Assembly: GCA_945865665.1 (NCBI GenBank)
Contig: CAMBEE010000001.1
Coordinates: 71,874 to 135,873 of the forward strand
DNA length: 64,000 bases
From: an uncultured Clostridium sp.
GTDB taxonomy: Bacteria > Bacillota > Clostridia > TANB77 > CAG-508
Direction: 5' to 3'
Positions 383-22,015 of this stretch are shown in pieces; positions within the stretch are counted from its first letter, which is position 1; each line of letters begins with the position of its first letter. The notes under the pieces were generated by a model. That model saw only the letters and a list, made by a program, of their open reading frames with translations. It was not told the origin of the DNA and did no database searches. The translations under genes were made by a program, and so were the position numbers.

Positions 383-570
383 TAAGGTATTATAATTCTA
401 GAATATATCTAACATATAGTGTGAACCAGTAGTAGATGAAGAATATAATAAATTGCTATAAGAAAATTGACAAAAATTGCATTTTTTTTTCAAAAAAGCT
501 ATTGCAAAATAAGAATTTTTTTGATATAACAGTTTTGAAGGAAAAAGGTATAGTTTTTAAGGAGGAAGTT

Positions 571-2214: not shown

Positions 2215-2251
2215 ATTATAATAAATTAAATTTTTGAAGAAAGGAGCAAAA

Positions 2252-5200
2252 ATGAATAAAGCAATGACTGATATACTAAAAAACAAAAGAAAAACAGTTC
2301 TATTTGTAGTTTTAGCAATCATCTTAGTTCTAGCTACATGGTATAAGTTAAAAGTTCAAGGAATAACTATGACAGAAGATGCTTCATATGAGCAAGTTTT
2401 AGTTTGTAAAAATTCTGATGTGAACCATGTACATTCAGCAGAATGTTATGAAAAAGTAGCAGTTACTAATCAAAATGAGAAAGAAAATGTAGTTCAAGAA
2501 GAAAAAGCGAAGGATACAACAGATTCAAAAGCTGAAGAACAACAAACTAATAAACAAAATGAAACTTCAGACCAAACTAGCAAGACTGAGTTGAAAGAAA
2601 ATACACCAGAAACTTTAAATTCAGAAGAAATTGTAAAAAATGCAGATAGAAACAATAGAATTTCAACGACAGCATTAGAGAATGTTAGACATTCTGAAGA
2701 AAGTGATGCAGTTAATTTATATGTGAATATAGATAATAATTGGACATTAATTGGGGTTTTGAACCAAAAAACTAGTAAAAAAGGGAAAAAATATATTAGC
2801 GCAGATGATGTTACAAAGTTAATTAATAAAAAATTAGATATATCTCCTAATAAAGCTAGTGAATTCAATTTATGTTACTTTGTTGGAACAAAAAATATTT
2901 TCTCTATGACAAATATAAATAAAGATAAATATAATTTAGGAAATGATAATTTATATATAGATGCTTATATAACATCAAATGTCACATCTGAAGATGCCTG
3001 GAGAAATGGAAAAAACAACTTTAAGGTATACTCAATTACAGAGAAAACTGCAGAAAATGTTCCAATAGATGGTACACCTAAATATGTATATGCAACAACA
3101 AATAAACCAGCAACATATCAGCTATCAGATGAACACAATTACTATGTAAATAATGAAAGTGAAATTAAACAAGCTGAAACACAAATTAATATATCTGGTC
3201 CAACAGTATTAAAACAAGTTCCGGTTGAAAAATGTACAGTTACAATTGTTAGCGTGGATGGAACAGTTGCTACAAAACAAGTAAATAAGGGTTCAAAATT
3301 TACACTAGGAAGTAACCTAAAATGGAAGGTTGGAGATAGCACAGAATTAACAAATGGTGGAACACAAATAACTGTAAATGAAAATATTACAGTTACAGAA
3401 TCAAATGAAATAAAAATAAACTATACAGTAGATACATCAACAACTGCAACAAATATTAATGCAAGATATAAATACGATGGAATTGCAATACCAACAGTTC
3501 AGGGAAGTAATACATATTCAACAACAATCACATATAATAGTGGAACAACAACAGAACAACTTTCAGACAAATATGTAACACCATATAATAGTGCTGCTAC
3601 AGTAACAAAGGATAGAATAATTCTTGAATTTGCCGGTTGGAAAATAAATGGTGGTTCTACAGTTGTAAACGCACAAACAGAACTTAGCTGGAATGAATTG
3701 TATTCATATGCCCAAAATGGAGAAATTAATTTTAGCACAATTTGGAACCATATTAATAACAACAAGAAATACGTAAATTTCTATATGAGATATGATTCAG
3801 TAGCAGTAGATACAAATGGAAACATTACAGGACAAGACGCAAATAAATATACCCCATCACTATGGGCAAGTTATGTTGGAAATAGTGATTTAGCAAGAAA
3901 TATAGCTGATACTTCTTCAGACAATTCATATGGAGCTAATAAAGCAATTAGACAACTAGAAGGTGTAAAGGAAAATTCTGCATATATTTATAGTATTCCA
4001 ACAGATGAATATATCTTAAGCCAATTAAAAAAATATTCAAATGATCTTTCAATTGATGGTGAAAAAGTATCAGTAGATCAATTGGATTTGGAACATTATG
4101 AAATAAGATGGTATGTATTTAAAAATCAACCTGATTGTTGGCATATAGATGGAAAATTAGTTAGAAAAGAAGGAAAAATGACTGTAAGTAAAACATTTAA
4201 AGGTTCAAAAACAGCAATAGAAGCGGTAACTGGATATTCTTTTGATACTAAAAATTCTACTAATTCTAGATATCATTTAGAAATGAAAGGTGGAAATGCT
4301 GTTGCAACAACAACAGATTTGTATCTAGATTCTGCAAAACTAGAAGATAAGTCAACAACACAAGATGGAGTTACAACATATGAATTAAAATACACATGGG
4401 AAGTTAATGTTAAATATGGAATACATTATACAATTACTGAAAAAAATTACAATGTAGATAGATATATTACAAATGCCGTATATAATATTGTTGATCCAGA
4501 GAACACAAAATATAAAAAAGTATATAATTCAGATGGAACATATTATTATGAAAAAGACTCAGAAGGAAACTTTATTACAACATACGAGAATCAATCTAAA
4601 GGTTCAACAACTGCTGATAGTGCAAATGTTATAGGTGTAAATAATTATGCAATAGATAGTGGGGAAGTTATAGATAACTCAAAACTAATAAATGTAAACT
4701 TTACAAACACATATGCACCAACATCAGCAATAACAATAAAGAAAGATGACTCTGCAACGAATAATGGGCTTGCTAATGCACAATTTTCACTATATGAAGT
4801 AAATAATGGTAATATAGATAAAAATTCACCAATAAAATTTACTTATAATGAATCAATTTACAAGTATAATGAAAATGGAGACAAAACTGTATTAACGTCG
4901 CCATCTGGTGGATCAATAATTTTAGATAACTTACCAACAGGTAAAACATATAAATTAGTTGAAATTTCTGTTCCAGAAGGATATGATGGAAACAGTTCAG
5001 TAGAGGTTACTCTTACAACACAAAATGATGGAGTTGTAGTTCCAGTAATTTCAAAAGGAACAGGAAAAGAATATGACGATAAAAACAAAGTACTAGAAGT
5101 TGATAATGCTTCTAAATTGACAGAAGTAAAAGTAACAAAAGTATGGCAAGATGTACCAGAAAAATATGTTAAAGATGTAATTGTTGAATTATATTTAAAC

Positions 5201-6058
5201 AATATGCCAATTTCAAATTATAATTTAAAATATGATTTAAATGGCGACGGAAAAATTGATGACAAAGACATTGTTACAATTCAAAAGCAAGTAACCTTAA
5301 ATAAAGAAAATAATTGGTCTAACACATGGAAAAACTTACCATTATATATTGATGGAAAAAAAGCAATATATTCAGTAAGAGAAGTACAAATAGGAGACAT
5401 AAAAGCAGTTACAAATGGCCAATATAATTCAGAAAAGGGAACATGGGAAAGTTATGATGCATATACACAATATAGGGCACATACAACTGAACAGAAAGAA
5501 ACAACTGACTCAAATGGAAATGTAACACAAGTTTCATTTGATTTAGTAAACACGATACATTTAGTAAAAATAAATATAAACAAAATTAGTCCATTAGGAT
5601 TGCCAATTGATGGTGTAAAATTCAGATTACAAAAAATAGATGATTTAGGAAACATAGATTCTACATTTGAAGCTAAAGAGCTTGTAACTTCATTAGATGG
5701 AAAGTTAAGCTTTGTTGATTTAGAATATAATACAAAATATGTAATAACAGAAATTGAAGGTAATAAGGGATATTATCTTGACAGTACACCAATTTATGTA
5801 ACAATAAATAAAGGTGAACAAGGGCAGGAAGATACTTTAACTTTATATAAAGACAATACATTTGAGGAAGAAGCACAAAAAGGCAACTATGAGTATGTGT
5901 CATTAAACGAATCAAAAGACACATTGAATATTATTAATATTTCACATACACCAATGCCAAAGGCTGGAGGATGTGGTGTTTATGGTTTTTACATTTTGGG
6001 TATTATTCTAATGGGATGCTCAATAATTATAATATATTTAAGAAAAAATAAAATATAG
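2252..6058 (+). CDS. Large surface/pilus tip adhesin (about 1270 aa) with CnaB-type isopeptide domains, a dockerin-like Ca-binding motif and a non-canonical C-terminal sorting signal
   Basis: RBS AAAGGAG before the ATG at 2252 (MNKAMTDIL...). N-terminal TM/signal anchor. CnaB-like segments (VTKVWQDVPEKYVKDVIVELYL, YVITEIEGNKGYY). Motif DLNGDGKIDDKD. The C-terminus is HTPMPKAGG followed by a hydrophobic TM and RKNKI, which is sorting-signal architecture without LPXTG. Confidence 0.7.
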   Translation: MNKAMTDILKNKRKTVLFVVLAIILVLATWYKLKVQGITMTEDASYEQVLVCKNSDVNHVHSAECYEKVAVTNQNEKENVVQEEKAKDTTDSKAEEQQTNKQNETSDQTSKTELKENTPETLNSEEIVKNADRNNRISTTALENVRHSEESDAVNLYVNIDNNWTLIGVLNQKTSKKGKKYISADDVTKLINKKLDISPNKASEFNLCYFVGTKNIFSMTNINKDKYNLGNDNLYIDAYITSNVTSEDAWRNGKNNFKVYSITEKTAENVPIDGTPKYVYATTNKPATYQLSDEHNYYVNNESEIKQAETQINISGPTVLKQVPVEKCTVTIVSVDGTVATKQVNKGSKFTLGSNLKWKVGDSTELTNGGTQITVNENITVTESNEIKINYTVDTSTTATNINARYKYDGIAIPTVQGSNTYSTTITYNSGTTTEQLSDKYVTPYNSAATVTKDRIILEFAGWKINGGSTVVNAQTELSWNELYSYAQNGEINFSTIWNHINNNKKYVNFYMRYDSVAVDTNGNITGQDANKYTPSLWASYVGNSDLARNIADTSSDNSYGANKAIRQLEGVKENSAYIYSIPTDEYILSQLKKYSNDLSIDGEKVSVDQLDLEHYEIRWYVFKNQPDCWHIDGKLVRKEGKMTVSKTFKGSKTAIEAVTGYSFDTKNSTNSRYHLEMKGGNAVATTTDLYLDSAKLEDKSTTQDGVTTYELKYTWEVNVKYGIHYTITEKNYNVDRYITNAVYNIVDPENTKYKKVYNSDGTYYYEKDSEGNFITTYENQSKGSTTADSANVIGVNNYAIDSGEVIDNSKLINVNFTNTYAPTSAITIKKDDSATNNGLANAQFSLYEVNNGNIDKNSPIKFTYNESIYKYNENGDKTVLTSPSGGSIILDNLPTGKTYKLVEISVPEGYDGNSSVEVTLTTQNDGVVVPVISKGTGKEYDDKNKVLEVDNASKLTEVKVTKVWQDVPEKYVKDVIVELYLNNMPISNYNLKYDLNGDGKIDDKDIVTIQKQVTLNKENNWSNTWKNLPLYIDGKKAIYSVREVQIGDIKAVTNGQYNSEKGTWESYDAYTQYRAHTTEQKETTDSNGNVTQVSFDLVNTIHLVKININKISPLGLPIDGVKFRLQKIDDLGNIDSTFEAKELVTSLDGKLSFVDLEYNTKYVITEIEGNKGYYLDSTPIYVTINKGEQGQEDTLTLYKDNTFEEEAQKGNYEYVSLNESKDTLNIINISHTPMPKAGGCGVYGFYILGIILMGCSIIIIYLRKNKI

Positions 6059-6074
6059 AAAGGAAAGTAAAAGG

Positions 6075-7583
6075 ATGAAAACATTTAAAAAATTATTTAC
6101 AGTTTTAGCAATTATTTTGTTTGCTATAATTTCATTATTACCAGCAAGAAGTTTATCTGCTGAAAACGACCTAACAATCACAGTAACAGGAGATGTAAAA
6201 GGTAGAACACTTTCTGTTTATAAATTATTTGATTTAACAGTAACAGGAACAGCTGAAAAACCAGTTTACAATTATACTTGGGCTGGAGCTTCAGAAAAAT
6301 TCTTTAGTGATAAAAAATATGAAACAGTTGCTAAAGCAACAGATTACTTAAAAGGACTTGAAAATAACTCAACAGCATTAACTACAATTGCTGAAGAATA
6401 TTACCAATATTGCAAAGATAATGGTCAAACAGCAATTGCTAAAAAACAAGGAATTGACACAACAGAAGCAGTATTCACTGTACCAGGTCAAGGATATTAT
6501 CTAGTTTATGATGAAACAGAAATAAATGAAACAGGTAGAGCTAGAGCTGCTGCTATGTTATCAAATGTTACAAAAAATGCAGAAGTAGCATTAAAAGCTG
6601 AGAAAACAACAGTTGAAAAAATGGCTGATAAAGCAACAGCAGCTGTTGGTGAAACAGTAAATTACACAGTAACATCAAGAGTTCCAAATGTAGTAGGATA
6701 TGACTCATACAAATTTATAGTAACAGATACATTATCAAAAGGATTAACATTAACTGACAATACAGTTGTTACAGTTACAATTGGTGGTGAAACATATACA
6801 GCTTGGACAAAAAATGTTACTCCTAACGATGGTGGTACAACAACATTAACAATAACATTTAATCCAACAGAATTTGCAAAATTAAAAGATAAAACAGGTG
6901 CAGAAATAAAAATTACATATTCTGCAGTATTAAATAATGATGCAGCAACAATCTTAGATAACACAAACGAAGTAAAAATTGAATATTCAAACAACCCAAC
7001 AACAGATGGAACAGGAACAACAAACACAGATGTAATTCACGTTTATACATACAAAATTGACTTCACAAAGAGAAATACAGCTGGAGTAGCATTACCAGGA
7101 GCAAAATTTGTATTAAAATTATCAGATGGAAAATTTGCAACATTTGATGAAAAAGGTGTATTTACAGGAACAGTTGCAACAAAAGAAGAAGCAACAGTAT
7201 TAACATCAGATGATAATGGTAATATTGCAATATCTGGATTGAAAGCTGGAACATATACATTAATAGAAACAGAAGCACCATCAGGATATAGCGTTCCAAA
7301 CTTTGAATTTGTATTTACAATTAGCCAAAAATTAGATGAAAATGGAAAATTAGAAACAGCAACATTTGACTATAAAACAGATGAAAATCTTAAAGCAGCT
7401 AAAGGATATATGACAGATAAAACAAATACATCAGCTTCATTTGCAATAGAAGTATTAAATGCTAAAGAAGGATCATTACCAACAACAGGTGGAATTGGAA
7501 CAACAATATTTACAGTTGCAGGTATAGCTGTAATGGCTGTTGCAGTTGTAGCATTAGTTGCTCACAATAAAAAAAATGATTAA
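6075..7583 (+). CDS. Major (backbone) pilin, LPXTG-anchored
   Basis: Signal peptide. E-box YTLIETEAPSGY. Pilin-motif-like VIHVYTYKIDFTKRN with a conserved Lys. C-terminal LPTTGG followed by a TM and HNKKND. RBS AAAAGGA. Confidence 0.8.
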   Translation: MKTFKKLFTVLAIILFAIISLLPARSLSAENDLTITVTGDVKGRTLSVYKLFDLTVTGTAEKPVYNYTWAGASEKFFSDKKYETVAKATDYLKGLENNSTALTTIAEEYYQYCKDNGQTAIAKKQGIDTTEAVFTVPGQGYYLVYDETEINETGRARAAAMLSNVTKNAEVALKAEKTTVEKMADKATAAVGETVNYTVTSRVPNVVGYDSYKFIVTDTLSKGLTLTDNTVVTVTIGGETYTAWTKNVTPNDGGTTTLTITFNPTEFAKLKDKTGAEIKITYSAVLNNDAATILDNTNEVKIEYSNNPTTDGTGTTNTDVIHVYTYKIDFTKRNTAGVALPGAKFVLKLSDGKFATFDEKGVFTGTVATKEEATVLTSDDNGNIAISGLKAGTYTLIETEAPSGYSVPNFEFVFTISQKLDENGKLETATFDYKTDENLKAAKGYMTDKTNTSASFAIEVLNAKEGSLPTTGGIGTTIFTVAGIAVMAVAVVALVAHNKKND

Positions 7584-7652
7584 TAAGTAAAAAACTTAAA
7601 TATATTATAAAAATAGATATAGATAAACAATACAGACTGAAGGAGGAAAAAG

Positions 7653-8513
7653 ATGAAAAAGAAATTCAACATAAAAAAACAATTACCTAATATCATATTA
7701 GCAATCGTATTTATTGTTGGTCTTTGCATATTTTTATATCCTTCAGTCAGTGATATAATAAATTCATGGCTTCAAAGCAAAGAAATCAGTAAATATGAAA
7801 ACCTTGTAGCAGGCTTATCAACTGAAGAATATGATAAAATGCTATCAGATGCAAGAGAATATAACAAGAAATTAGTAGGAAATAATTTAACACAGAACAT
7901 AGAAAAATCAAAAAATACAAATTATAACCAACTACTTTCTCTAGATAATACGGGAATAATGGGATATTTATATATAAGTAAAATAAATGTTAGATTACCA
8001 ATATATCATGGAACAGATGCATCAGTTTTACAAAATGGTATTGGACATTTAGAAGGTTCATCATTACCTGTTGATGGAGAAACACAACATGTAGTTATAT
8101 CAGGACATACGGGACTACCATCATCAAAATTATTAACTGATTTGGTTGAGCTAGAAGTAGGTGACACATTTAAGTTAGACATACTTAACCAAAGATATAC
8201 ATATGAAGTAGATCAAATACTTGTAGTTGAGCCAAATGAGACCGATGCATTAGAATTAGTAGAAGGTAAGCAATATGCAACAATAATTACATGTACTCCT
8301 TATGGAGTAAATACACATAGACTATTAGTTAGAGGAAAACTTAAAGATGAAACTGTAGATGCTAACATTTCAGGAGATGCAATAATAATAAATTCTAAAA
8401 CATTAATACCAATAATTTCAATTCCGTTAATTATAATCTTATTTATAATTATGATTAGTATAAGAAGAAAAAGAAAGGAAAGGGAAATAGATGAAGAAGA
8501 TAATATTAAGTAG
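7653..8513 (+). CDS. Class C (pilus-polymerising) sortase
   Basis: N-terminal TM anchor. Catalytic His (ISGHTG), TLxTC motif IITCTPYG, conserved Arg (HRLLVRG). C-terminal TM lid. RBS GAAGGAGG. Confidence 0.85.
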   Translation: MKKKFNIKKQLPNIILAIVFIVGLCIFLYPSVSDIINSWLQSKEISKYENLVAGLSTEEYDKMLSDAREYNKKLVGNNLTQNIEKSKNTNYNQLLSLDNTGIMGYLYISKINVRLPIYHGTDASVLQNGIGHLEGSSLPVDGETQHVVISGHTGLPSSKLLTDLVELEVGDTFKLDILNQRYTYEVDQILVVEPNETDALELVEGKQYATIITCTPYGVNTHRLLVRGKLKDETVDANISGDAIIINSKTLIPIISIPLIIILFIIMISIRRKRKEREIDEEDNIK

Positions 8514-9144
8514 TTTAATTTTTATAATACTTGTAGCTAGTTTAGTTGGAACAGTATTAGCTGTAAATTTGGGGACGATTCAATTTGTGGCAATAGATAA
8601 TACTGACTCAAAAACAATAGAAAATTTAGAAGTTTCAGTATATCAAGTAAGTACACAAGATGAACAGGGGAATTTTAAATTTGCAGCTGGATTTGAAAAT
8701 TGTACATTAAACATAGAGGACTTATCAGAAAGAAATTTACAAAATTTAAAAGAATATGCAAAAGCAAATGCAAATCCAGTATCTATAAAAACAACTAATT
8801 CAAATGGTAAATTCAGTTTGAATAATTTAGATTTAGGAGTATACTTATTTGTACAAGAAAACAAAGAAAACGAAATCACTATGCAAACAATGTTAATCTC
8901 AATTCCTGAATTGAATAAAGAAAATGGCTTGAAATATAATGTTACAGTAAAACCTAAAATACTAAACAAAGAAATAGTAGATAAAAATGAAAACCAAAAA
9001 AATAGTACACTAGTACAAGATGACAAACTGCCATATACAGGAGTTTTAAATTGGCCTATACCTGTTCTTGTAGTTGTAGGAATAGTTATTTTTTGTATAG
9101 CCTGGCTAAAAGTTTACGGTACATCTAAAAAAAAAGTAAAATAG
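8491..9144 (+). CDS. Small LPXTG pilin (minor/basal pilin candidate), signal is LPYTG
   Basis: Signal peptide. C-terminal KLPYTG followed by a TM and KKKVK. The start overlaps the end of the sortase gene, implying translational coupling. Confidence 0.6.
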   Translation: MKKIILSSLIFIILVASLVGTVLAVNLGTIQFVAIDNTDSKTIENLEVSVYQVSTQDEQGNFKFAAGFENCTLNIEDLSERNLQNLKEYAKANANPVSIKTTNSNGKFSLNNLDLGVYLFVQENKENEITMQTMLISIPELNKENGLKYNVTVKPKILNKEIVDKNENQKNSTLVQDDKLPYTGVLNWPIPVLVVVGIVIFCIAWLKVYGTSKKKVK

Positions 9145-9155
9145 GCATATTTTTT

Positions 9156-9752
9156 ATGATATTTGCTGTCTTGATGTTAGCTAGTGCAGGAATATTATTA
9201 TTATACAACTCATCAGAAGATACAAGAGTTGAAGATGATAACCTAGAAACAGTTACACAATTAGAAAACATTTTAGAAAAGCAAAATGATAATCAAAATA
9301 ATGTGCAAAATTCAGAAAAAACAGAGAATACTGAAAATAATGCTATATCTTTAAATAATAATAGGACAAGTATTAACATTAAAGGAAATAACTATATTGG
9401 AATTATCTATATACCAATATTAAATAATCTTGCTTTGCCTGTTATAGAAGATTGTACAGTAGATAACTTAAAAATATCTGTATGTAGATATTCAGGAAAT
9501 ATTAATGAAAATAACCTTGTTATTGCAGGACATAACTATAAATCATCTTTTGGAAAACTTTCAAGACTTACTGTTGGAAATCTTGTATATTTTAAAGATG
9601 TTAATGGAAATGTATATAAATATCATTGCAAAGCAATTGAAACCTTATCTCCTAAGTCTGTAAATGAAATGATAACTGGAGATTGGGACTTAACTTTATT
9701 TACTTGTACCTATAATGGTGCTAATCGTATTGCATATAGATTTGAGTTGTAA
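9156..9752 (+). CDS. Sortase, second copy (small class B/D-like transpeptidase)
   Basis: N-terminal TM. Catalytic His (LVIAGHNY), Cys (LFTCTY) and Arg (RIAYRFEL). No obvious RBS. Confidence 0.7.
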   Translation: MIFAVLMLASAGILLLYNSSEDTRVEDDNLETVTQLENILEKQNDNQNNVQNSEKTENTENNAISLNNNRTSINIKGNNYIGIIYIPILNNLALPVIEDCTVDNLKISVCRYSGNINENNLVIAGHNYKSSFGKLSRLTVGNLVYFKDVNGNVYKYHCKAIETLSPKSVNEMITGDWDLTLFTCTYNGANRIAYRFEL

Positions 9753-10001: not shown

Positions 10002-10957
10002 ATGCAGAAGCAAAATATATATGTAGCAATAGATTTAAAAAGTTTTTATGCTTCAGTAGAATGTCGAGAAAGAGGATTAAACCCTCTAACAACTAATCTG
10101 GTAGTAGCAGACAGTAGTAGAACAGAAAAAACAATATGTCTTGCTGTAAGTCCATCTCTAAAACAATATGGAATACCAGGAAGAGCAAGGCTATTTGAAG
10201 TAGTTCAAAAAGTAAGAGAAATAAATACAAATAGAAGATATAATGCACCTGGTCATATATTAAAAGGAAAATCTTATGAAGACATAGAACTAAAAAAACA
10301 TCCAGAATATGAACTAGATTATATTATAGCACCACCTCAAATGAAAAAATATATGAAGTATAGCACTAATATATATAATATTTATCTAAAATATTTTTCT
10401 CCAGATGATATATGTGTTTATTCCATAGATGAAGTTTTTATTGATGTAACACATTATTTAAAAACCTATCAAATGAAAGCAAGTCAATTAGCCACAAAAG
10501 TTATACATGATATATATAAACAAACTGGAATTACAGCAACTTGTGGAGTAGGAACAAATCTATATCTTGCAAAAATTGCAATGGACATAGTAGCAAAACA
10601 TGCACATGGTACGATAAATTTAGACCATAAAACTTCATCGAATAAACTTATTGGTGAATCAGTTATGAAATTATATAATAGAATAATTGATAAGCGTTTA
10701 TTAACTCGGAGAATTAATATAACTGCAAATAATGTAATTAGTGAAGAACAGGCTGAAAAAGAAAATAAATTTGAACAAATTGATTTATTTACTGATTATT
10801 CAGAAGTAGAAAGAAAAAAAAGAGCAAAATCTTCAAAGATCTATACTAGATATAAAGAAAAAATATGGTAAAAACGCAATTCTAAAAGGAATGAATTTTG
10901 AAGATGGAGGAACAACAATAGAAAGAAGTGAACAAGTAGGAGGTCATAAAGGTTAAT
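10002..10957 (+). pseudogene. Y-family (UmuC/UvrX/ImpB-like) translesion DNA polymerase, degraded
   Basis: The N-terminus YVAIDLKSFYASVECRE is the Y-family palm motif. The protein is far shorter than the about 420-aa norm. A +1 frameshift lies inside an A8 run (10813-10820); the shifted frame continues as KKYGKNAILKGMNFEDGGTTIERSEQVGGHKG, the typical family C-terminus. A promoter TTACAA-17-TATAAT lies upstream at about 9943-9971. Confidence 0.6.
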
Positions 10958-11193: not shown

Positions 11194-11454
11194 TTAAATA
11201 TTATCAATAAAATCAGAAACTAAATCTTCAAGTTTAACATTAAAAACTTTAGCAAAACCACATAATTCATAATCAACAACAGTTCTTTTTCCAGTTTCAA
11301 TTTTATAAATCTCTTGTTTATGAATATCAATTCCGTGAAGCATAAGCTTGTCTGATAAACTTTGATATGAATAATTATTTAATTCACGATAATATCTAAT
11401 CTTATCCTTAACAATATTAAGACTATTTTCGATATTTGTATTTCTTTTACTCAT
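11194..11454 (-). CDS. XRE-family helix-turn-helix transcriptional regulator
   Basis: RBS AAGGAG before ATG (MSKRNTNIENSL...). HTH segment SYQSLSDKLMLHGIDIHKQEIYKIETGKR. A hairpin with a T-run lies about 30-90 nt downstream on the - strand. Confidence 0.65.
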   Translation of the reverse strand: MSKRNTNIENSLNIVKDKIRYYRELNNYSYQSLSDKLMLHGIDIHKQEIYKIETGKRTVVDYELCGFAKVFNVKLEDLVSDFIDNI

Positions 11455-11616
11455 ATTGAAAACTCCTTTTTTACTTATTTTTCCACATTGCATTGATTTT
11501 ATAATATAATTTTGATAGAATATAACCCACAGAGGTTATATATTATTTATGTTACAAGTTTCGACAAATTTTTAAGATACAATTGTTATAAAATTGAATA
11601 AGAAAGAGGTCAAAAA

Positions 11617-11883
11617 ATGGAAAAAATAAAAGTAATAATTGCAGATGATATACAAGCTATTGTAGAAAGTAATAAACGAATTGTTGCATCATTTGATAAT
11701 GTTGAGGTTATTGTGACTGCATACAATGGCCAAGATGAGTATGAGATGATAATAAACTTACAACCAGATTTTGTAAGCAATAGAAGAGAGGTAGAAGTAG
11801 ATATGGAAAAGTGTAAAAAAAAGAATACAGAACATTGCACAAAATCAAAGTTTTGTGCAAAAAGGAATAGGAGTAAAATATAA
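11617..11883 (+). pseudogene. Truncated response-regulator receiver-domain fragment
   Basis: MEKIKVIIADDIQAIVE...IVTAYNGQDEYEMIINLQPDFV is a CheY-like receiver N-terminus. It runs into repeat R1 after about 60 aa. There is no output domain. Confidence 0.5.
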
Positions 11884-12731
11884 AACCATAGTTATATGGT
11901 CCTACCCATGAAATCTTGCTACTCCTTTAATAAAGCCTATTTTAGCATCTTATACTAACAACAAACTATACTACTTTTATATAAAAACCTCTTAAAATTG
12001 ATTCTGAAGCTTCATTAATTTAGCTTTTACTTGGTTGGATTTTTTTTCATTATTGTAACTACATATTTTCAAAAAAATTTTATATAACTTTAGATTATTT
12101 TATCAAAATTTCACAAATCCCCATATTTCAGTATTTTGCTTGATTTTGCAGACAACAAGTTATATGCCTTAAAAATAAAAACGCCTTAAAATCGATTCTC
12201 GTGCGTCACTTTTTTAGCCATTTTTAAGCATTTTTAATAAATGCCTAAAAATCAGCATTTCTACTTAAATAATATAATAAATATTAGTTTTTTTAATTTA
12301 CACATCTAATTTAAAACATATAACTTGTTAAATAAAATATTAAAATGTCTTAAAATCTATTTTGACGTGTCATAAATATAAAATTATATTATGGATTTGT
12401 AATCTAAAATTATATAATAGTTATTCAAAAATTTTTATAAAATTATAATGAAAAATTTATTTACAAACATTTTTAACAAATGTTCGTTTTTTAAAAATTA
12501 ATAATAAAAATTCACTTTACACAAAATTTTTAAATTTTTAATTATTAGATTTTAATTATAAAATTTTTTAAAATTCTAATTCTAAATTTTAATATTAATT
12601 TTTTGAAAAATTTTATTTTATATCTTTTAATAGTATAAAAAATTTCTTTATGTATTTATTTTTTTGTTTTAAAATTTATTTAAAATTTCTATTTTTGTAT
12701 TTTCTCAAAAATAGCCTATTCCCCTATTCCC
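11846..12731. repeat. Non-coding repeat module A (R-box + three degenerate about 60-bp units + about 400-bp unit)
   Basis: Homologous at about 75-90% to 13486-14208. It ends with ctcaaaaatagcctattcccctattccct. The units share cttaaaatcgattct. Confidence 0.8.
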
Positions 12732-13286: not shown

Positions 13287-13485
13287 AAAAAAACCTCCTT
13301 TAAATGTTGTATTTACAAAAGTGATAGTTATATATTAACACATTTTACATAATATTTCAATATAAATCAATTAAACTTCACATTTTTAGTATCTAATATT
13401 AAACTTAATTTCACATTTTATATATTGTTTAAGTGAATTTTTTATAAAAATTTTAGAAATTCAAAACAAGTTTTTGGTTTGTATT

Positions 13486-14208
13486 ATCAAAGTTTTGTGC
13501 AAAAAGGAATAAGGGTAAAAATACAGACCTCGCATTTAGGTCCTACCCAGTACTTTCTAGGCCTTCTAGCCATTAATACATATATTATTACTATTATTAT
13601 CTTATTATTTAATATTGCATCTTTTTTTATCTAATGTTATTCAACATCTTATATTACTTTATATATTTATCATTTATTTATTTTTAATCCTTAAATTTTA
13701 AATTTATATCTTAATATTTTTTATAATTTCAGATCCTATCTTATAATTTTATCAAAATTGCTCAAAACGCCTAAATGTCCATATTCGACGTATTTTGCAG
13801 ACAACAAACTTGTTTGATTAAATATAAAAATGTCTTAAAATCGATTTTAACGTGTCATAAATATAAAATTATATTATGGATTTGTAATCTAAAATTATAT
13901 AATGATTATACAAAAAAATTATTAATTTATAATGCAAAAATTTATTTACAAACAATTTTAACAAATGTTCGTTTTTGAAAATTACATATATAAAATTAAC
14001 TTTACACAAAATTTTAAAATTTTTAATTATTAGATTTTAATTATAAAATTTTTATAAATTCTAATTCTAAATTTTAATATTAATTTTTTGAAAATTTTTA
14101 TTTTTATCTTTTAATCATATAAAAAATTTCTTTATGTATTTATTTTTTGTTTTTAAAATTTATTTTAAATTTGTATTTCCTCAAAAATAGCCTATTCCCC
14201 TATTCCCT
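13486..14208. repeat. Non-coding repeat module B (R-box + unit + about 400-bp unit), a direct repeat of module A
   Basis: Module A is at 11846-12731. The same end motif cctattcccctattccct is present. Confidence 0.8.
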
Positions 14209-15349: not shown

Positions 15350-15841
15350 TTATTTGATCGTTAACTGTTCTAATATTCCATCAATATCAGGAAAAATAAT
15401 ATTTTTCATTCCATGATTATATAAATTTAAAACCTTAGTAGCTTTATATATTATTTCTTCTTGCAATTTGTTTGACAGTTTTATAACAACTTTATTTTTT
15501 ATATATTGACTTTCTATATATTCCTCTGTTACTGGAAACATATTTTGTATTAAGAAAGCACTGTATGTATTTGCAACATTTCCAAAAACAATAGTATCAA
15601 TTGAAGGTTTCTTTCCTAATTTTATTTGTTTTTTTATTTTATTATCATAGATTCTTTGATACTTATCTACTTTTGTACTAACAGGAATAAACCAAATAAT
15701 ATTATTATATTCTTTACTTTTAAAGCAATAATAGCATGGTCTTTTATTTCCATTTTCTTTATTTTGCATTAGTTCTGGATCATCTATAACATCAAAAAAC
15801 GAATCTTTAATAAAATAAAAACATCCTATATCTATTTGCAT
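15350..15841 (-). CDS. ToxN/AbiQ-family endoribonuclease toxin (type III toxin-antitoxin / abortive-infection family)
   Basis: 163 aa. RBS AAGGAG 9 nt upstream. My alignment to AbiQ/ToxN is from memory: FYFIKDSFFDV..NKRP..IIWFIPVSTK..IDTIVFGNV..LIQNMFPVTEEYI against MKFYTI..FD.KV..RP..APLSSPK..GVINLNNMIPV. Preceded by tandem repeats and a hairpin. Confidence 0.6.
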   Translation of the reverse strand: MQIDIGCFYFIKDSFFDVIDDPELMQNKENGNKRPCYYCFKSKEYNNIIWFIPVSTKVDKYQRIYDNKIKKQIKLGKKPSIDTIVFGNVANTYSAFLIQNMFPVTEEYIESQYIKNKVVIKLSNKLQEEIIYKATKVLNLYNHGMKNIIFPDIDGILEQLTIK

Positions 15842-15868
15842 ATTTATATTACTCCTTATATTATGAGA

Positions 15869-15890
15869 GGCTTACCATTTCTGGTAAGCC
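15869..15890 (-). terminator. Hairpin between the repeat array and the toxin gene (leaky terminator / processing element candidate)
   Basis: ggcttacca-tttc-tggtaagcc is a perfect 9-bp stem with a 4-nt loop. There is no strong U-tract. Confidence 0.4.
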
Positions 15891-15897
15891 CCAATTA

Positions 15898-16006
15898 ATT
15901 TATTCACTCTCTCATTTGTTAGTCGCTCAAAGAGGCGGCGACAAATACATTTATTCACTCTCTCATTTATAACTCGCCAAAGAGGCGGCGACAAACACAT
16001 TTATTA
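15898..16006 (-). ncRNA. 2.2 tandem 51-nt direct repeats: candidate ToxI-like antitoxin RNA of a type III toxin-antitoxin system
   Basis: atttattcactctctcattt(gttagtcgctc/ataactcgcc)aaagaggcggcgacaaa(t/c)ac occurs twice, followed by a partial atttatt. Each unit contains a GC-rich hairpin gtcgc...gcgac. It lies immediately upstream of the toxN-like gene on the same strand. Confidence 0.5.
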
Positions 16007-16094
16007 AAAACAATGATGTTCTTAATTATTATATTCATAATAGCATGAAATATGTTACTTTGTCAATAATTTTAATAAATTTTCTTTTTAAAAG

Positions 16095-16160
16095 CAGAAC
16101 AACAATTTGGTTTGTATTATCAAAGTTTTGTGCAATAAGAGATAGGAGCAAAAATTGTTA
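16095..16160 (-). promoter_or_regulatory. R-box copy R3 (shared with R1 at 11846 and R2 at 13486); a promoter/leader for - strand transcription of the repeat-toxin unit is likely
   Basis: tttggtttgtattatcaaagttttgtgcaa is shared with R2. The reverse complement contains ttgcacaaaactttgataatac, a -10-like GATAAT. Confidence 0.35.
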
Positions 16161-16249: not shown

Positions 16250-17686
16250 TTATGCATGTATAATATTTGTATTCTTTGAAATTTCACTATTAGTTGTTAC
16301 AATATCATAATTACTCAAATTATGAATATCCTTGTTTCCTGTTATTCTTGCAAAAGTTTTTAATTCATCATTTACAACATTAAAATAATTCTCTAACCTT
16401 TTACTGCTTTTTTCAATATTTAATCTTTTTCTTAATTCTGAATCTTGTGTTCCTACTCCTACCGGACACATTCCATTATTGCAAACTCTGTACTGTTGGC
16501 AAGCAATTGCCATCATTGCAGCTGTTCCAATAGCGATAGCATCTGCTCCCATTGCAATTGCCTTAGCAAAATCTGATGAAGTTCTTAGTCCTCCCGTTAT
16601 GACAAGTGATATATCTTCTCCATGCTCATCTAAATATTTTCTTGCTCTATATAGTGCATATATTGTAGGTACTGTTGTTGCATCTTTTATGATTTTAGGG
16701 CTTGCACCTGTTGCACCACCTCTCCCATCTATTGTAATAAAATCCGGCTTTGCAAAACAAGCAAATTCTAGATCCTCTTCTATATGTCCTGCTGCAAATT
16801 TCACACCAATTGGTCTTCCTTCTGATTTTTCTCTTAATTCATCTACTAGAGATTTTAAGTCTTCTTTTGTTTCAATCTCTTTAAATTTAGATGGACTAAT
16901 AATATCTTCTTCTACTTTTTTACCTCTTATTTTTGCAATTTCTTCTGTTACTTTTTCTCCGGGTAGGTGTCCTCCCATTCCTGGTTTTGTTCCTTGACCT
17001 ATTTTAATCTCTATTGCACTTACCTTTTTTAAGTTTTCATCCGTAACACTATATTTATTTGGCACATATTCAAAAATATATTCATAAGCATTTTCAAATT
17101 CTTCTGGTAATATTCCACCTTCTCCGCTACATATTGCTGTTTTTACATTTTTCGTTCCTATGGCCAAGGCTGTTTTGGCTTCCTTTGATAATGCACCGAA
17201 AGACATGTGTGTTACAAATACAGGTGTTTCTAAAATCATTGGCTTTTTCGCATTTTTACCAATTACTGTTCTTAGACTAACTTCTTCATCCTCAAAAAGT
17301 GGCATTTTGCTAAGTTGTCCACCTAGAATTAGAATATCATTCCAGCTAGTTACAGGTAACTTTGTTCCCATTGCTGAAATAATACTTTTTCCTGTAATAG
17401 CCATTGTATGGATATCTTCCATTCTTTGTTCTACTTCGTCTGTACTACGAGTATATTCTTTTAAATAGTTTTCTAGCTTATTTTCATTCTTTCTTGTTTC
17501 TTCTTTAGATTCTACTTTTTCTTCTTGTTTTGCATCTTCTTCTACTAATTTAAACATATTCTTTGGTGCAAAACACATTGGACATTTCCAATCATCTGGT
17601 AAGTCTTCAAATTTAACTCCCTCTTTTTCTTCATCATAAATATGTCCACATAATTGACATTTATATTTAGCCATTTTTTCCTCCAT
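16250..17686 (-). CDS. Rubredoxin-fused glutamate-synthase-domain (FMN/Fe-S) oxidoreductase
   Basis: N-terminus is rubredoxin ([11 protein letters not shown]...WKCPMC). The remainder is a GltS FMN-binding domain ([28 protein letters not shown]). Confidence 0.75.
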
Positions 17687-17702
17687 TTTTAATTTCTATA
17701 AG

Positions 17703-17730
17703 AGATACAAAAAGGTATCTCTTATTTTAC
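17703..17730 (-). other. Intercistronic perfect hairpin between rbr and the downstream oxidoreductase gene
   Basis: taagagatac-aaaaag-gtatctctta is a 10-bp perfect stem. The T-run is only on the + strand side. Confidence 0.35.
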
Positions 17731-17737
17731 TAATATA

Positions 17738-18277
17738 TTAATAATTTTCTGCTTTTATTTCAAAATATGCTTTTGGATGACTACAAACTGGGCAAATTTC
17801 TGGTGCTTCTTTACCAATTACAATATGTCCACAATTTCTACATTTCCAAATTTTATCTCCATCTTTAGAAAATACTAACCCATCTTCTACATTTTCTAAT
17901 AATTTTTTATATCTTTCTTCATGTTCTTTTTCTATCTTTCCAACCGCTTCAAATAAATATGCTATTCTATCAAATCCTTCTTCCTTTGCTTCTTTTGCCA
18001 TTCTATCATACATATCTGTCCATTCAAAATTTTCTCCTTCTGCTGCTGCTTTTAAATTTTCAGCTGTAGATGGTATATCTTCATCATGTAATAGTTTAAA
18101 CCATAATTTAGCATGTTCTTTTTCATTATCTGCTGTTTCTTGGAATATTGCTGCTATTTGCTCATATCCTTCCTTTTTAGCTTTGCTTGCAAAATAGGTA
18201 TATTTATTTCTTGCTTGTGATTCTCCTGCAAATGCCTCCATTAAATTTTTTTCTGTTTTTGATCCTTTTAATTCCAT
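17738..18277 (-). CDS. rbr: Rubrerythrin
   Basis: Ferritin-like diiron domain ([18 protein letters not shown]) plus a C-terminal rubredoxin-like CxxC...CxxC (WKCRNCGH...CPVCSHP). Confidence 0.85.
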
Positions 18278-18280
18278 TTT

Positions 18281-18679
18281 TTATTCCTCCTCATACTTTA
18301 TTTTAGATTTACATTCTTCACATATTCCATATAAAATGATACTGTCTACATTAGTAATTACACTCGTTTGATTATGGATCAATTCTTTTAGTTTTTCCTT
18401 CTTAAACTGATACATAAAATCAAAAACTTTTCCACATTTGTTGCATATTACATGATAATGTTCTTTATCAATATAATCATATTTGTCTGGTCCAGTTAAT
18501 ACTTTTATTTTCTTGATAGTTTTATTTTCCAATAAAACATTTAAATTTCTATAAACTGTACTTTTACTAATAGTTGGATTATCTTGATGTACTTTATCAT
18601 ATATTTGTTCCGCTGTTGGATGATTTAAATACTTAAATGTTTCTAGTATAATTTCTCTTTGCTTAGAATAGTTATTCAT
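18281..18679 (-). CDS. perR: Fur-family peroxide-responsive repressor (PerR-like)
   Basis: Fur family fold: DNA-binding helix STVYRNLNVL, HYHVICNKCGKV, and C-terminal CEEC. Located upstream of rbr. Confidence 0.75.
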   Translation of the reverse strand: MNNYSKQREIILETFKYLNHPTAEQIYDKVHQDNPTISKSTVYRNLNVLLENKTIKKIKVLTGPDKYDYIDKEHYHVICNKCGKVFDFMYQFKKEKLKELIHNQTSVITNVDSIILYGICEECKSKIKYEEE

Positions 18680-18714: not shown

Positions 18715-18949
18715 TTGTTTTATTTTATATTATTTCATATAGTTTGTCAATAACTTTATGATTATTATTACTCAATTTTTTATAATTAGAAAGATAATTT
18801 GAGCGATAACTTACTATTATTTGAGATGATTATACCATACTATTTCTGCTTTGTTTCCACTAACTGAAACAAATATGCATCAAAAGTTTTTTCTGTTACA
18901 GAAGTGTAAATATATACAACATCATTTTCATTTCCTTGTCTAGGTCCGT

Positions 18950-19252
18950 CTACCGATTTCTTTGAGTTAAATCTGAAGGTCGCCACGGACAGTCTAAATG
19001 ATGAAGTGCAATTATTTTATTTTGGCAGTTTGTTCCTGCTCCCATTTTTGCAGTAGATCCCATTAAAACTCTTATATTTCCTGCTCTTACTTTTGAAAAT
19101 AATTCTTGTTTTTGAGTATCATTATTTGCATCATGTATAAACGCAATTTCGTTTTCTGGTATTCCTTTTTCAATTAATTTTCGTTTTAAATCTGTATATA
19201 CACCTGTAAATTTCCATTCTTTTAGTTTCCATTTTCTGTCTACAAGTTCCAT
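18950..19252 (-). pseudogene. C-terminal fragment of an SNF2/DEAD-like helicase (helicase motif VI region)
   Basis: IRVLMGSTAKMGAGTNCQNKIIALHHLDCPWRPSDLTQRNR. No upstream catalytic core is in frame. Confidence 0.45.
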
Positions 19253-20711: not shown

Positions 20712-21191
20712 TTACTTTTTTACTTTTTTCTTATAATCATAAATTAATGTACCAACAAATAATATAGCAGATAATCCGCCAATTAAAGCAAATATTCCTG
20801 TATGTCTATCATCTCCTGTGTTTGGCACTTCGATTATATCATTTTCAAAATTAATGTTATATATTGAATCATTTTCTGCTATTAAATCCCCATCAACAAA
20901 TACCCCATTATCATTTATTTCAATATTTACTACTTTATTTGATAATTCATATCCAGCTGGTGCTTTTAGTTCTTTTATATAATATTTTCCATATCGTAGT
21001 TCTTCAAATATAACATATCCATCATTTTTATTTGATTTTACTTCTTTTATCAAATTATTACATTCTTCATCTTCATAGATTCCAAATACAAATTTTTCTT
21101 TTATTAATTCTTTGGTTTTACTATCTATTTTATTTAGTTTGATATTTTTTAATATCGGCATCTCTTTCTTCTTGTGTTGTAAAGAAATCAT
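20712..21191 (-). pseudogene. C-terminal fragment of a sortase-anchored surface protein (CnaB/SpaA-like domain + VPNTG sorting signal) lacking a signal peptide
   Basis: FVFGIYEDEE...YIKELKAPAGYEL is a CnaB-like segment. The C-terminus is VPNTGDD, then a TM, then KKKVKK. There is no N-terminal hydrophobic signal. The start overlaps the parA stop. Confidence 0.5.
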
Positions 21192-22015
21192 CTATCTTGG
21201 AAAAGTGCATTTTTTCTTCTTTCTCTTTCATTATCTTTCAAAACCTCCTTCGCAAATAATGAATAAGCCTCTGTGACTTTACTATTTTTGTTATAGGCTA
21301 TTATACTTTTTCCTTTTGATGTAGTTTCTGCTGCTTTAATAGCAAATGGAATATTGGTATCATATATTTTTACAACATTACCAAAATTATTTATCAATTC
21401 TTCTTTTATAGCACTCGGCAATTTTGTCCTATTATCAACCAATGTTAGTAATATTCCTCCAACTTTTAGTTCTTTGTTTAGTTGTCTTTTAACTTTAGCT
21501 ACTATATTCAATAAATTTCCCATTCCTCTTGCCGATAAATACTGACTTTGTACGGGGATAATTACTTCATTACTACAAGCTAAAGCATTAGTTGTTATCA
21601 TATTTAGTGATGGCATACAATCAATAATTATAAAGTCATATTGTTCTTTCAAATCTTTTAAACAACCCTCAAGTGCATACTCTCTTTTCATTGCATTCAT
21701 AAGTTCTGTTTCAACCATTGCTAATCCTAAATTAGAAGGAATCAAATCAATATTTTCTTTATGATGTAATACGGACTCATGTACATTTATGTTCTTGTCT
21801 TTAATGTATCTATCTATTAAAGTTCCTAATGTAACTGGAATATTGTCCTCATCATAAAATCCCATACAAGTTGTTAGATTAGCCTGTGGGTCGGCATCTA
21901 CCACTAAAACTTTTTTACCATTATTGGCTAAAGCAACTCCTAAACTAAAAGTTGTTGTTGTTTTACCAACTCTTCCTTTTTGATTTGCTATACTAATTAC
22001 TTTGCATTTTGACAT
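21188..22015 (-). CDS. parA: ParA/Soj-family partition ATPase
   Basis: Deviant Walker A KGRVGKTTT, VVDADPQANLT. 275 aa. Confidence 0.85.
   Translation of the reverse strand: MSKCKVISIANQKGRVGKTTTTFSLGVALANNGKKVLVVDADPQANLTTCMGFYDEDNIPVTLGTLIDRYIKDKNINVHESVLHHKENIDLIPSNLGLAMVETELMNAMKREYALEGCLKDLKEQYDFIIIDCMPSLNMITTNALACSNEVIIPVQSQYLSARGMGNLLNIVAKVKRQLNKELKVGGILLTLVDNRTKLPSAIKEELINNFGNVVKIYDTNIPFAIKAAETTSKGKSIIAYNKNSKVTEAYSLFAKEVLKDNERERRKNALFQDR

Follow-up and report, generated by a model that had tools for sequence, protein, structure and literature searches.

The closest described relatives of the locus analysed here are three type III toxin-antitoxin systems, CptIN of Eubacterium rectale, ToxIN of Pectobacterium and Bacillus, and AbiQ/AntiQ of Lactococcus, all of which work on one principle: an endoribonuclease toxin is held in check by the repeated pseudoknot RNA that it has itself processed. 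They share a locus grammar, and their toxins have a distant structural kinship within the Kid/MazF-like superfold, but ToxN and AbiQ belong to another family than CptN and less than 15% identity has been reported between the families. ToxI and AntiQ repeats measure 34-36 nucleotides (nt) and occur in 2.8-5.5 copies, and their complexes are heterohexameric (3:3), whereas that of CptIN is 2:2. The CptI RNA of E. rectale is a 45-nt H-type pseudoknot with two stems, S1 and S2, a 1-nt loop L1 and an A-rich loop L2 with an A-minor twist (PMC4627078). For this system killing and rescue, self-processing to a 2',3'-cyclic phosphate, the 2:2 complex and plasmid stabilisation have been reported, and cptIN(Er) lifted plasmid retention from ~50% to 100% (PMC4627078). 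Toxicity, neutralisation by cognate repeats and processing have been described for the E. rectale, R. torques and C. catus loci only (PMC3401426). Here we analyse a stretch of 64,000 nt from an uncultured Clostridium sp. (the window, to which all coordinates refer), where a region of the minus strand is very probably a complete and apparently functional CptIN-family type III toxin-antitoxin module, with cassette addiction as a suggested role.

Read 5' to 3' on the minus strand, the module consists of a promoter, a leader, two repeats with a stub, a hairpin, a ribosome-binding site and a 163-residue open reading frame:

16037..16066, minus strand: sigma-70-type promoter, TTGACA-18 nt-TG-n-TATTAT (11 of 12 positions match, extended -10)
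16005..16030, minus strand: leader of ~25 nt, with a weak AU-rich stem-loop ahead of the first repeat
15955..16004, minus strand: cptI unit 1, 50 nt, modelled with S1 UCGCC/GGCGA, S2 CUCUUU/AGAGAG and L2 GUUAUAAAUG
15904..15954, minus strand: cptI unit 2, 51 nt, modelled with S1 GUCGC/GCGAC, S2 CUCUUU/AGAGAG and L2 UAACAAAUG
15893..15903, minus strand: partial third repeat, AUAAAU plus UAAUU, which gives unit 2 its 3' boundary motif
15867..15892, minus strand: 11-bp hairpin with a GNRA-like GAAA loop between repeats and toxin (energy, covariation)
15852..15857, minus strand: ribosome-binding site AAGGAG, 10 nt 5' of the ATG (direct reading)
15350..15841, minus strand: cptN, predicted CptN-family endoribonuclease toxin of 163 residues with an ATG start (profile, PDB and fold matches)

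A preliminary description of this DNA had reported the 163-residue frame (15841..15350) with a good ribosome-binding site, and had recognised the promoter, repeat RNA, hairpin and toxin layout of a type III system. Both observations hold, with AAGGAG at its place before the ATG and all elements on one strand. Of 80 related loci, drawn from one-genome-per-species contigs, about 50 show the same arrangement 5' of their homologous gene, and because it recurs in this way the layout is not a product of chance. Relatives keep the promoter (TTGACA and TATTAT/TAATAT), AAGGAG or GGAG at the equivalent position, the partial third repeat and the leader, which is near-invariant; the transcription start was placed from the -10 box only. 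A leader stem-loop precedes the first repeat in both CptIN subclades, AU-rich here and GATAGAGAAATCTATC in Lachnospiraceae (L066-L080, in our numbering of related loci), and may be a conserved 5' protective or processing element.

The order of promoter, about two tandem repeats, palindrome and toxin is that of cptIN in E. rectale (4RMO; Rao et al. 2015, PMC4627078; Blower et al. 2012, PMC3401426), and both loci are chromosomal and belong to gut Clostridia. The toxins are 36-43% identical with template-modelling (TM) scores of 0.81-0.85, and the RNAs follow the same plan, in which units start with AAAU, S1 is GC-rich, S2 is formed by the S1 loop with the 3' tail, and L2 contains ..AUAAAUG. The present locus differs in its unit of 50/51 rather than 45 nt, in two conserved but non-identical repeats (R1 and R2), in a Ser-Thr-Lys loop for Ser-Ser-Arg, in an asparagine for Asp81, in an extra AU at the cut site, and in a hairpin between repeats and toxin that lacks a U-tract.

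The toxin had been assigned to the ToxN/AbiQ family in the preliminary description, an assignment that we replace. The NCBIfam equivalog model NF047359 (type III toxin-antitoxin system CptIN family toxin) matches over positions 1-150 of its 150 with 170.8 bits against a cut-off of 90, phmmer aligns residues 7-160 to CptN of E. rectale (PDB 4RMO_A) with an expectation value (E) of 7.4e-27, and an NCBI protein 89% identical is already named 'type III toxin-antitoxin system CptIN family toxin'. The Pfam family ToxN_toxin (PF13958) scored 18.8 bits with partial coverage (E 0.002), below its gathering score of 25, and the PADLOC AbiQ profile gave a marginal match (E 0.008). An AlphaFold model (AF2) from an alignment of 45 diverse representatives has a predicted local distance difference test value (pLDDT) of 94.6 and a predicted TM score of 0.89; an alignment of 21 close homologues (81-94% identical) gave an unusable model with a pLDDT of 43.6, which was replaced. 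The top Foldseek match of the AF2 model in the PDB is again 4RMO_A (TM 0.81/0.85, E 9.6e-13), followed by MazF (TM ~0.46), Kid-like and CcdB toxins with TM scores of 0.41-0.49, and ToxN and AbiQ structures are absent among the top 50 PDB matches. The CptN fold is a twisted antiparallel beta-sheet with surrounding helices and has been remarked to be closer to Kid than that of ToxN is (PMC4627078), with which this order of fold matches agrees. Judged by its sequence and modelled fold the toxin is CptN and not ToxN or AbiQ. Having been searched against the ToxN, AbiQ and CptN families the frame emerges as a clear CptN, so that the claim of a type III toxin stands under another family name.

The family is large, with 962 clusters at 50% identity (E <= 1e-3). 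Six residues, R34, W50, S55, K60, Q99 and P103, are invariant in the 45 diverse relatives and all six are present here; S55 is the catalytic-loop serine. As a reference for the active site we used CptN of E. rectale, with its Ser-Ser/Thr-Arg triad, Asp81, Ser85 and Tyr104, and Thr56, Ser94 and Tyr112 are present in the protein studied here.

The repeats were described at first as 51-nt units of perfect period. Two units and a stub are indeed there, but they measure 50 and 51 nt and are about 91% alike. Tandem Repeats Finder reports 15898-16005 with a period of 50, 2.1 copies, 91% matches and a score of 181, a repeat search gives start-to-start spacings of 51 and 50, and direct reading gives 50 nt for unit 1 and 51 nt for unit 2, followed by a stub of 7-12 nt that repeats only the first 6-7 nt of the unit, AUAAAU(U). 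The 2.1-2.2 copies lie on the toxin strand and end 44-63 nt ahead of the ATG. The units differ at five positions plus a 1-nt indel, which shifts the register of the internal GC hairpin; each unit does carry a GC-rich hairpin, as had been noted, but the registers are shifted and the gtcgc..gcgac form (GUCGC/GCGAC) is that of unit 2. A degenerate 24-nt pattern of the unit occurs at these two places only in the 64 kb, with 0 expected from shuffles.

We modelled the units with a GC-rich S1, an S2 that joins CUCUUU of the S1 loop to the downstream AGAGAG, and an A-rich L2, and compared this model with the sequences of relatives. Among 47 distinct units of the clade, 94.1% of S1 and S2 cells are paired and four pairs are compensatory, such as pair 16-26, for which 30 units have C-G, 13 have U-A and 3 have U-G. 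Shuffles failed to reach the paired fraction or the covariation score in any of 500 cases and reached the number of compensatory pairs in one of 500, while sliding the partners by one to three columns lowers the pairing to 43-66%. The test across the whole family is the stronger one, because S2 is almost invariant inside the clade. There S2 differs wholly from locus to locus, and even a single locus can have two repeats with unlike S2, but complementarity is kept (CUCUUU/AGAGAG, UCUAC/GUAGA, AUCGGC/GCCGAU, CCGAC/GUCGG, GUGAU/AUCAC and ATTCGT/ACGAAT). The score is 12.95 for cognate pairs of loop and tail but 8.31 for non-cognate ones; shuffled tails give 8.83 +/- 0.46, and the cognate value is reached by 0 of 1000 of them. 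The A-rich ..AUAAAUG loop matches the L2 loop of CptI that forms the A-minor twist. The covariation thus backs the pseudoknot that the preliminary description had proposed to look for in the repeat unit, and supports a predicted CptI-type H-type fold for each repeat.

The phase of the units was set by analogy to E. rectale CptI, where the unit ends at G44-A45 with a cyclic phosphate and U4 follows (PMC4627078). Here two extra nt (AU) stand between the cut-site G-A and the AAAU motif, which leaves two candidate cuts, GUGA^AUAAAU and GAAU^AAAU. The two units take conserved unlike forms in about 25 genomes, R1 with 50 nt (..GGCGAG UUAUAAAUG) and R2 with 51 nt (..GAGCGAC UAACAAAUG), while in about 24 other genomes they are near-identical. 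Where the forms differ, the 2:2 complex might be heterotypic in its RNA.

A period of 50 nt is found in 38 related loci, 51 in 12 and 52 in one, 51 loci in all, whereas periods are shorter, 46-47 nt, in CptN relatives at greater distance (36-43% identity, most of them Lachnospiraceae). The published range for cptI is 40-48 nt with 1.9-3.4 copies across 33 loci, with 45 nt in E. rectale (PMC3401426), so the unit found here exceeds the 2012 range by 2-3 nt. Its length had been taken to indicate a divergent member. The unit is longer than those of ToxI and AntiQ, but CptI is the proper comparator, and because 50-52 nt is the norm of the subclade the long unit is no sign of a divergent system.

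The hairpin that separates the repeats from the toxin reads GGGGCUUACCA-GAAA-UGGUAAGCCUC (15892..15867). Its stem has the 9 Watson-Crick pairs first reported for it, or 11 with one G.U and one G-C pair counted in, and its energy is -19 kcal/mol (z = -5.7). Among 36 distinct relatives 97.5% of the cells are paired and 6 of the 11 pairs are compensatory, which 0 of 500 shuffles match, and by this comparison of sequences the hairpin is clearly under selection. The palindrome had been taken for a terminator, and it is present where it was placed, but because no U-tract follows it a terminator role is assumed and termination uncertain. Most of the clade likewise has no U-run after the hairpin, and some relatives have T-runs. 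We presume that it acts as an attenuator, a terminator or an RNA-stability element, with attenuation or protection of the upstream RNA as possible as termination.

The surroundings of the module suggest what it may be for. A sequence called the R-box, which contains a 26-bp dif-like site, occurs in three copies at 11810, 13452 and 16085, so that it precedes another cassette at 13.5 kb as well as this one, as the preliminary description had seen. The sites within it are:

16110..16135, minus strand: dif-like half-site 1, TTGCACAAAA-CTTTGA-TAATACAAAC, the outer boundary of the cassette that starts with cptIN
13477..13502, minus strand: dif-like half-site 2, with the sequence of site 1, the boundary of cassettes A and B
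11835..11860, no strand assigned: perfect 10-6-10 palindrome TTGCACAAAA-CTTTGA-TTTTGTGCAA, a candidate chromosomal dif site

The half-sites share their left arm and centre with the palindrome and diverge in the right arm (TAATACAAAC). Two cassettes are bracketed by the three sites. Cassette A holds cptIN, three small open reading frames and an AT-rich non-coding tail of about 700 nt, and cassette B a 140-residue frame plus a homologous tail. No recombinase family was matched in profile searches with the cassette frames (69, 73, 128 and 140 residues, and cptN). The palindrome lies within about 100 nt of the maximum of the window's cumulative G-C (11750), where gene orientation converges. In ten of ten other genomes it stands 0.9-2.4 kb downstream of cptN with a change of skew sign and convergent frames, and five or six of these ten have rho as the convergent neighbour. 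Together these findings point to the replication terminus, and to a fixed chromosomal position, as the place of the palindrome.

One conserved arm and centre beside a divergent other arm is the hallmark of the att sites of IMEX elements (TLC-phi, GGI) and of dif modules (PMC5357621; PMC5790767). The same pattern, with other right-arm sequences, occurs in L002/L081-86, L024, L037 and L053, and the 26-bp dif-like site itself is also found in L003, L005, L015, L050, L053, L058, L059, L061, L063, L074 and L081-L087. In a widespread gut species (P0010, ~3000 assembly blocks) cptIN and two frames lie between a half-site and a full palindrome. Strains of one species have either an intact palindrome (L081-83) or a replaced right arm followed by a conjugative-type element with ParA, ParB and TraG (L084), and on a viral contig (L087) a lysin and a tyrosine recombinase are encoded next to the dif-like site. 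In these cases the site behaves as an insertion point. The flanks of cptIN are unrelated in many other relatives and have no dif-like site nearby, and the association is therefore frequent but not obligatory.

To IMEX at dif (TLC-phi, CTX-phi, GGI) and the Acinetobacter pdif modules, which often carry toxin-antitoxin genes (PMC5357621; PMC5790767), the likeness is one of context only. As in these there is no own integrase, the sites are direct copies of ~26-28 bp, the array abuts a full site at the GC-skew switch, and a toxin-antitoxin system is the passenger. Unlike the dif of XerCD, the site is non-canonical (by eye, the XerD arm of E. coli agrees with it at 8 of 11 positions), and since it is a perfect palindrome a single recombinase is suggested. 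Each site also has, on one side, ~70-700 nt of conserved non-coding DNA, unlike IMEX and pdif, and the host is an uncultured low-GC Clostridia lineage, unlike theirs. A canonical dif core of the B. subtilis/E. coli type gave fewer matches in the window than chance. The palindrome may be the dif of this lineage or an att site located at the terminus, with cptIN riding an integrase-less cassette.

Other explanations of the sites were considered and set aside. No tRNA gene that could serve as integration target was found in 10-18 kb, and readings as integron attC or IS200/IS605-PATE were rejected because a GTTRRRY-type box is missing, neither an integrase nor a transposase is present, and the site, which lies at the skew switch, is a 10-6-10 palindrome. 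A scan of viral contigs with a 16-nt half-site gave at least 120 matches, which were judged mostly chance for a 16-mer and were not used.

The non-coding DNA of the cassettes has features of its own. The tails are homologous over 298 nt at 89% identity (12322-12619 and 13807-14104), with further matches at 12687-12733/14163-14209 and another repeat at 11949, 12143 and 13792. Tandem repeats of 37-38 nt occur in them, as do a CCTATTCC doublet and, ahead of a T-run, a palindrome (ACGCCTTAAAATCGATT..); Rfam gave no match. About 70 nt adjoining each site is kept across genomes and contains a covarying hairpin, ACCATA/TATGGT versus GACCT/AGGTC. The tails may act as a terminator, encode a small RNA or serve as arm or accessory sites.

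The module would work as follows if it behaves like its E. rectale counterpart. A strong, constitutive-looking promoter would give one transcript of leader, two CptI units with the stub, hairpin and cptN mRNA, and the hairpin probably curbs read-through or stabilises the upstream RNA, which would leave more antitoxin RNA than toxin mRNA. CptN, an RNase of Kid/MazF-like fold, would then cleave the transcribed repeats where A-rich boundaries (GUGA/AUAAAU) separate the units, and each released unit would form an H-type pseudoknot from S1 and S2 (CUCUUU with AGAGAG), its A-rich ..AUAAAUG loop in the groove of S1. Joined by two such units, two CptN monomers would form a closed 2:2 ring that is inactive. 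Were the locus lost or its transcription stopped, the RNA would decay faster than the protein and free CptN would cleave cellular RNA and arrest growth. Homology, fold, locus architecture and RNA covariation are shown by the present analysis, whereas processing, complex stoichiometry and toxicity are carried over by analogy from the E. rectale structure and assays.

As to the biological role, cptIN is the first gene of an integrase-less cassette between dif-like sites, and for this reason its role may be to make the cassette hard to lose. We infer that addiction on a Xer-type cassette is most likely; phage defence is possible as a role but unsupported. A wider proposal, which we think possible though rather short of probable, is that in uncultured low-GC gut Clostridia the palindrome beside rho would be the chromosome dimer-resolution site and at the same time a landing pad for arrays of small IMEX-like cassettes without integrase, for prophages and for conjugative elements, and that cptIN would recur as the first gene of such cassettes because it penalises their Xer-mediated loss. 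If this is true CptIN gains a concrete function and a testable system.

Several points weigh against regarding the region as a functional CptIN module. The evidence for the present locus is wholly computational. In the toxin, the Ser-Ser-Arg triad of E. rectale corresponds to Ser-Thr-Lys, with Lys57 for arginine, Asp81 corresponds to Asn90, and Tyr104 is not kept family-wide. The triad and Asp81 substitutions are conservative and common to the whole clade, and because the third triad position varies between R, K and Q across the family we take Ser-Thr-Lys to be tolerated variation. In the RNA, the two repeats are 91% alike with one indel, whereas published cptI repeats are nearly identical, and the first repeats of many relatives read CCCCUUU, which puts a C.A mismatch into S2 and accounts for five non-paired cells at pair 20-46. 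Nested folding of single units is no better than that of shuffles (z -1.9 and -0.4), a result that is expected for a pseudoknot and gives no support either way. An Rfam scan of 10-20 kb (E <= 1) found no ToxI- or CptI-like family, its sole match, PVX_3, being judged chance, and a terminator scan of the window found 0 sites, with no U-run after the hairpin.

The rival with the largest claim is a ToxIN/AbiQ-type abortive-infection system, in which the toxin would be ToxN or AbiQ and its function altruistic death on phage infection. The locus grammar is the same as that of toxIN and abiQ, both proven abortive-infection systems in the literature, and the weak Pfam and PADLOC matches given above point the same way. 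The toxin also matches phrog_33519, a PHROG of no assigned function, with E 3e-21, so that relatives of the toxin do occur in phage or prophage DNA. Yet tblastn of the toxin against 50,697 phage records found no homologue, the ToxN score stays under its gathering score, and CptN is the best match in sequence, profile and fold alike. CptIN loci failed to protect against coliphages, first 6 and subsequently over 200, in tests made in E. coli only (PMC3401426; PMC4627078), and the neighbouring cassette frames match no defence family, nor any family at significance. We consider an abortive-infection system unlikely and drop this label, which the preliminary description had applied, from a family without phage protection in E. 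coli.

Decay is a further concern, since several relatives are degraded, with repeats reduced or gone and toxin frames cut or interrupted, and the locus could be a decaying or domesticated remnant, kept by drift, with a non-functional toxin or RNA. The unlike repeats and the hairpin without a U-run would fit such a remnant. This is improbable for a frame that is full length with all family-invariant residues, a promoter and ribosome-binding site near consensus, and S1 and S2 intact in both repeats; the difference between R1 and R2 is itself kept in about 25 genomes and therefore argues for selection over decay. It is harder still to credit that the repeats are DNA sites such as iterons or operators, or coding sequence, rather than an antitoxin RNA. 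A 42-residue frame (15872-16000) does overlap them and direct repeats next to a promoter could bind a repressor, but the 50/51-nt period breaks the reading frame between units, the 42-residue frame is not kept in frame in relatives, and the repeats lie downstream of the promoter, inside the transcript. The substitutions in relatives are compensatory for RNA helices including the pseudoknot, which neither DNA binding nor coding would predict. A CptIN module with an RNA antitoxin is preferred over all three.

The protein is found in thousands of gut metagenome assemblies. The whole locus had no blastn match among plasmids, but CptN homologues (30-47% identity) occur on 15 plasmids, including 12-kb plasmids of Clostridium perfringens and plasmids of Megamonas and Fusobacterium, which is at odds with the survey of 2012, whose 33 cptIN loci all lay on chromosomes (PMC3401426). 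Among the relatives some have a single repeat or none (L037, L047, L049, L053 and L057) or a toxin frame that is short or interrupted by stops (114 residues in L038, 16 in L055), which suggests that the module decays often.

The CptIN family has already been described, structurally solved and named by the NCBI annotation pipeline, and the locus is a typical member of a populous, annotated subclade, with unequal 50/51-nt units, the Ser-Thr-Lys loop and the U-less hairpin as minor departures. The subclade with 50-51-nt CptI units (51 loci) widens the published length range and supplies natural covariation data for the CptI pseudoknot. The main interest is in the context, a candidate non-canonical dif with cassette arrays and the addiction role that a cassette beside a dif-like site points to, possibly an undescribed dif/IMEX system of low-GC gut Clostridia.

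Further observations concern the neighbouring genes. A frame at 11617-11883 (plus strand) begins with about 53 residues (11617-11775) of a response-regulator receiver domain, Spo0A/CheB-like by weak NCBIfam matches, and then runs into the palindrome region, so that it looks like a receiver-domain gene truncated beside the recombination site. Three regions are probably remnants of other mobile elements near the terminus: an ImpB/MucB-type Y-family polymerase frame with a weak C-terminal domain (10002-10871, plus strand), an XRE-type repressor (11194-11493, minus strand) and two overlapping helicase C-terminal-like fragments (18840-19252, minus strand). In a Gram-positive pilus cluster at 436-9752 (plus strand), SpaA/Cna-B pilins with LPXTG are accompanied by two sortases and by a large protein that contains an S26 signal-peptidase domain, and across the terminus a short SpaA-domain frame (20712-21191, minus strand) stands beside a ParA-like ATPase (21188-22015). 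Directly upstream of the cassette array, at 16250-18679 (minus strand), lies an oxidative-stress cluster of a rubredoxin-fused glutamate-synthase-like flavoprotein, a rubrerythrin and a Fur/PerR-family regulator.

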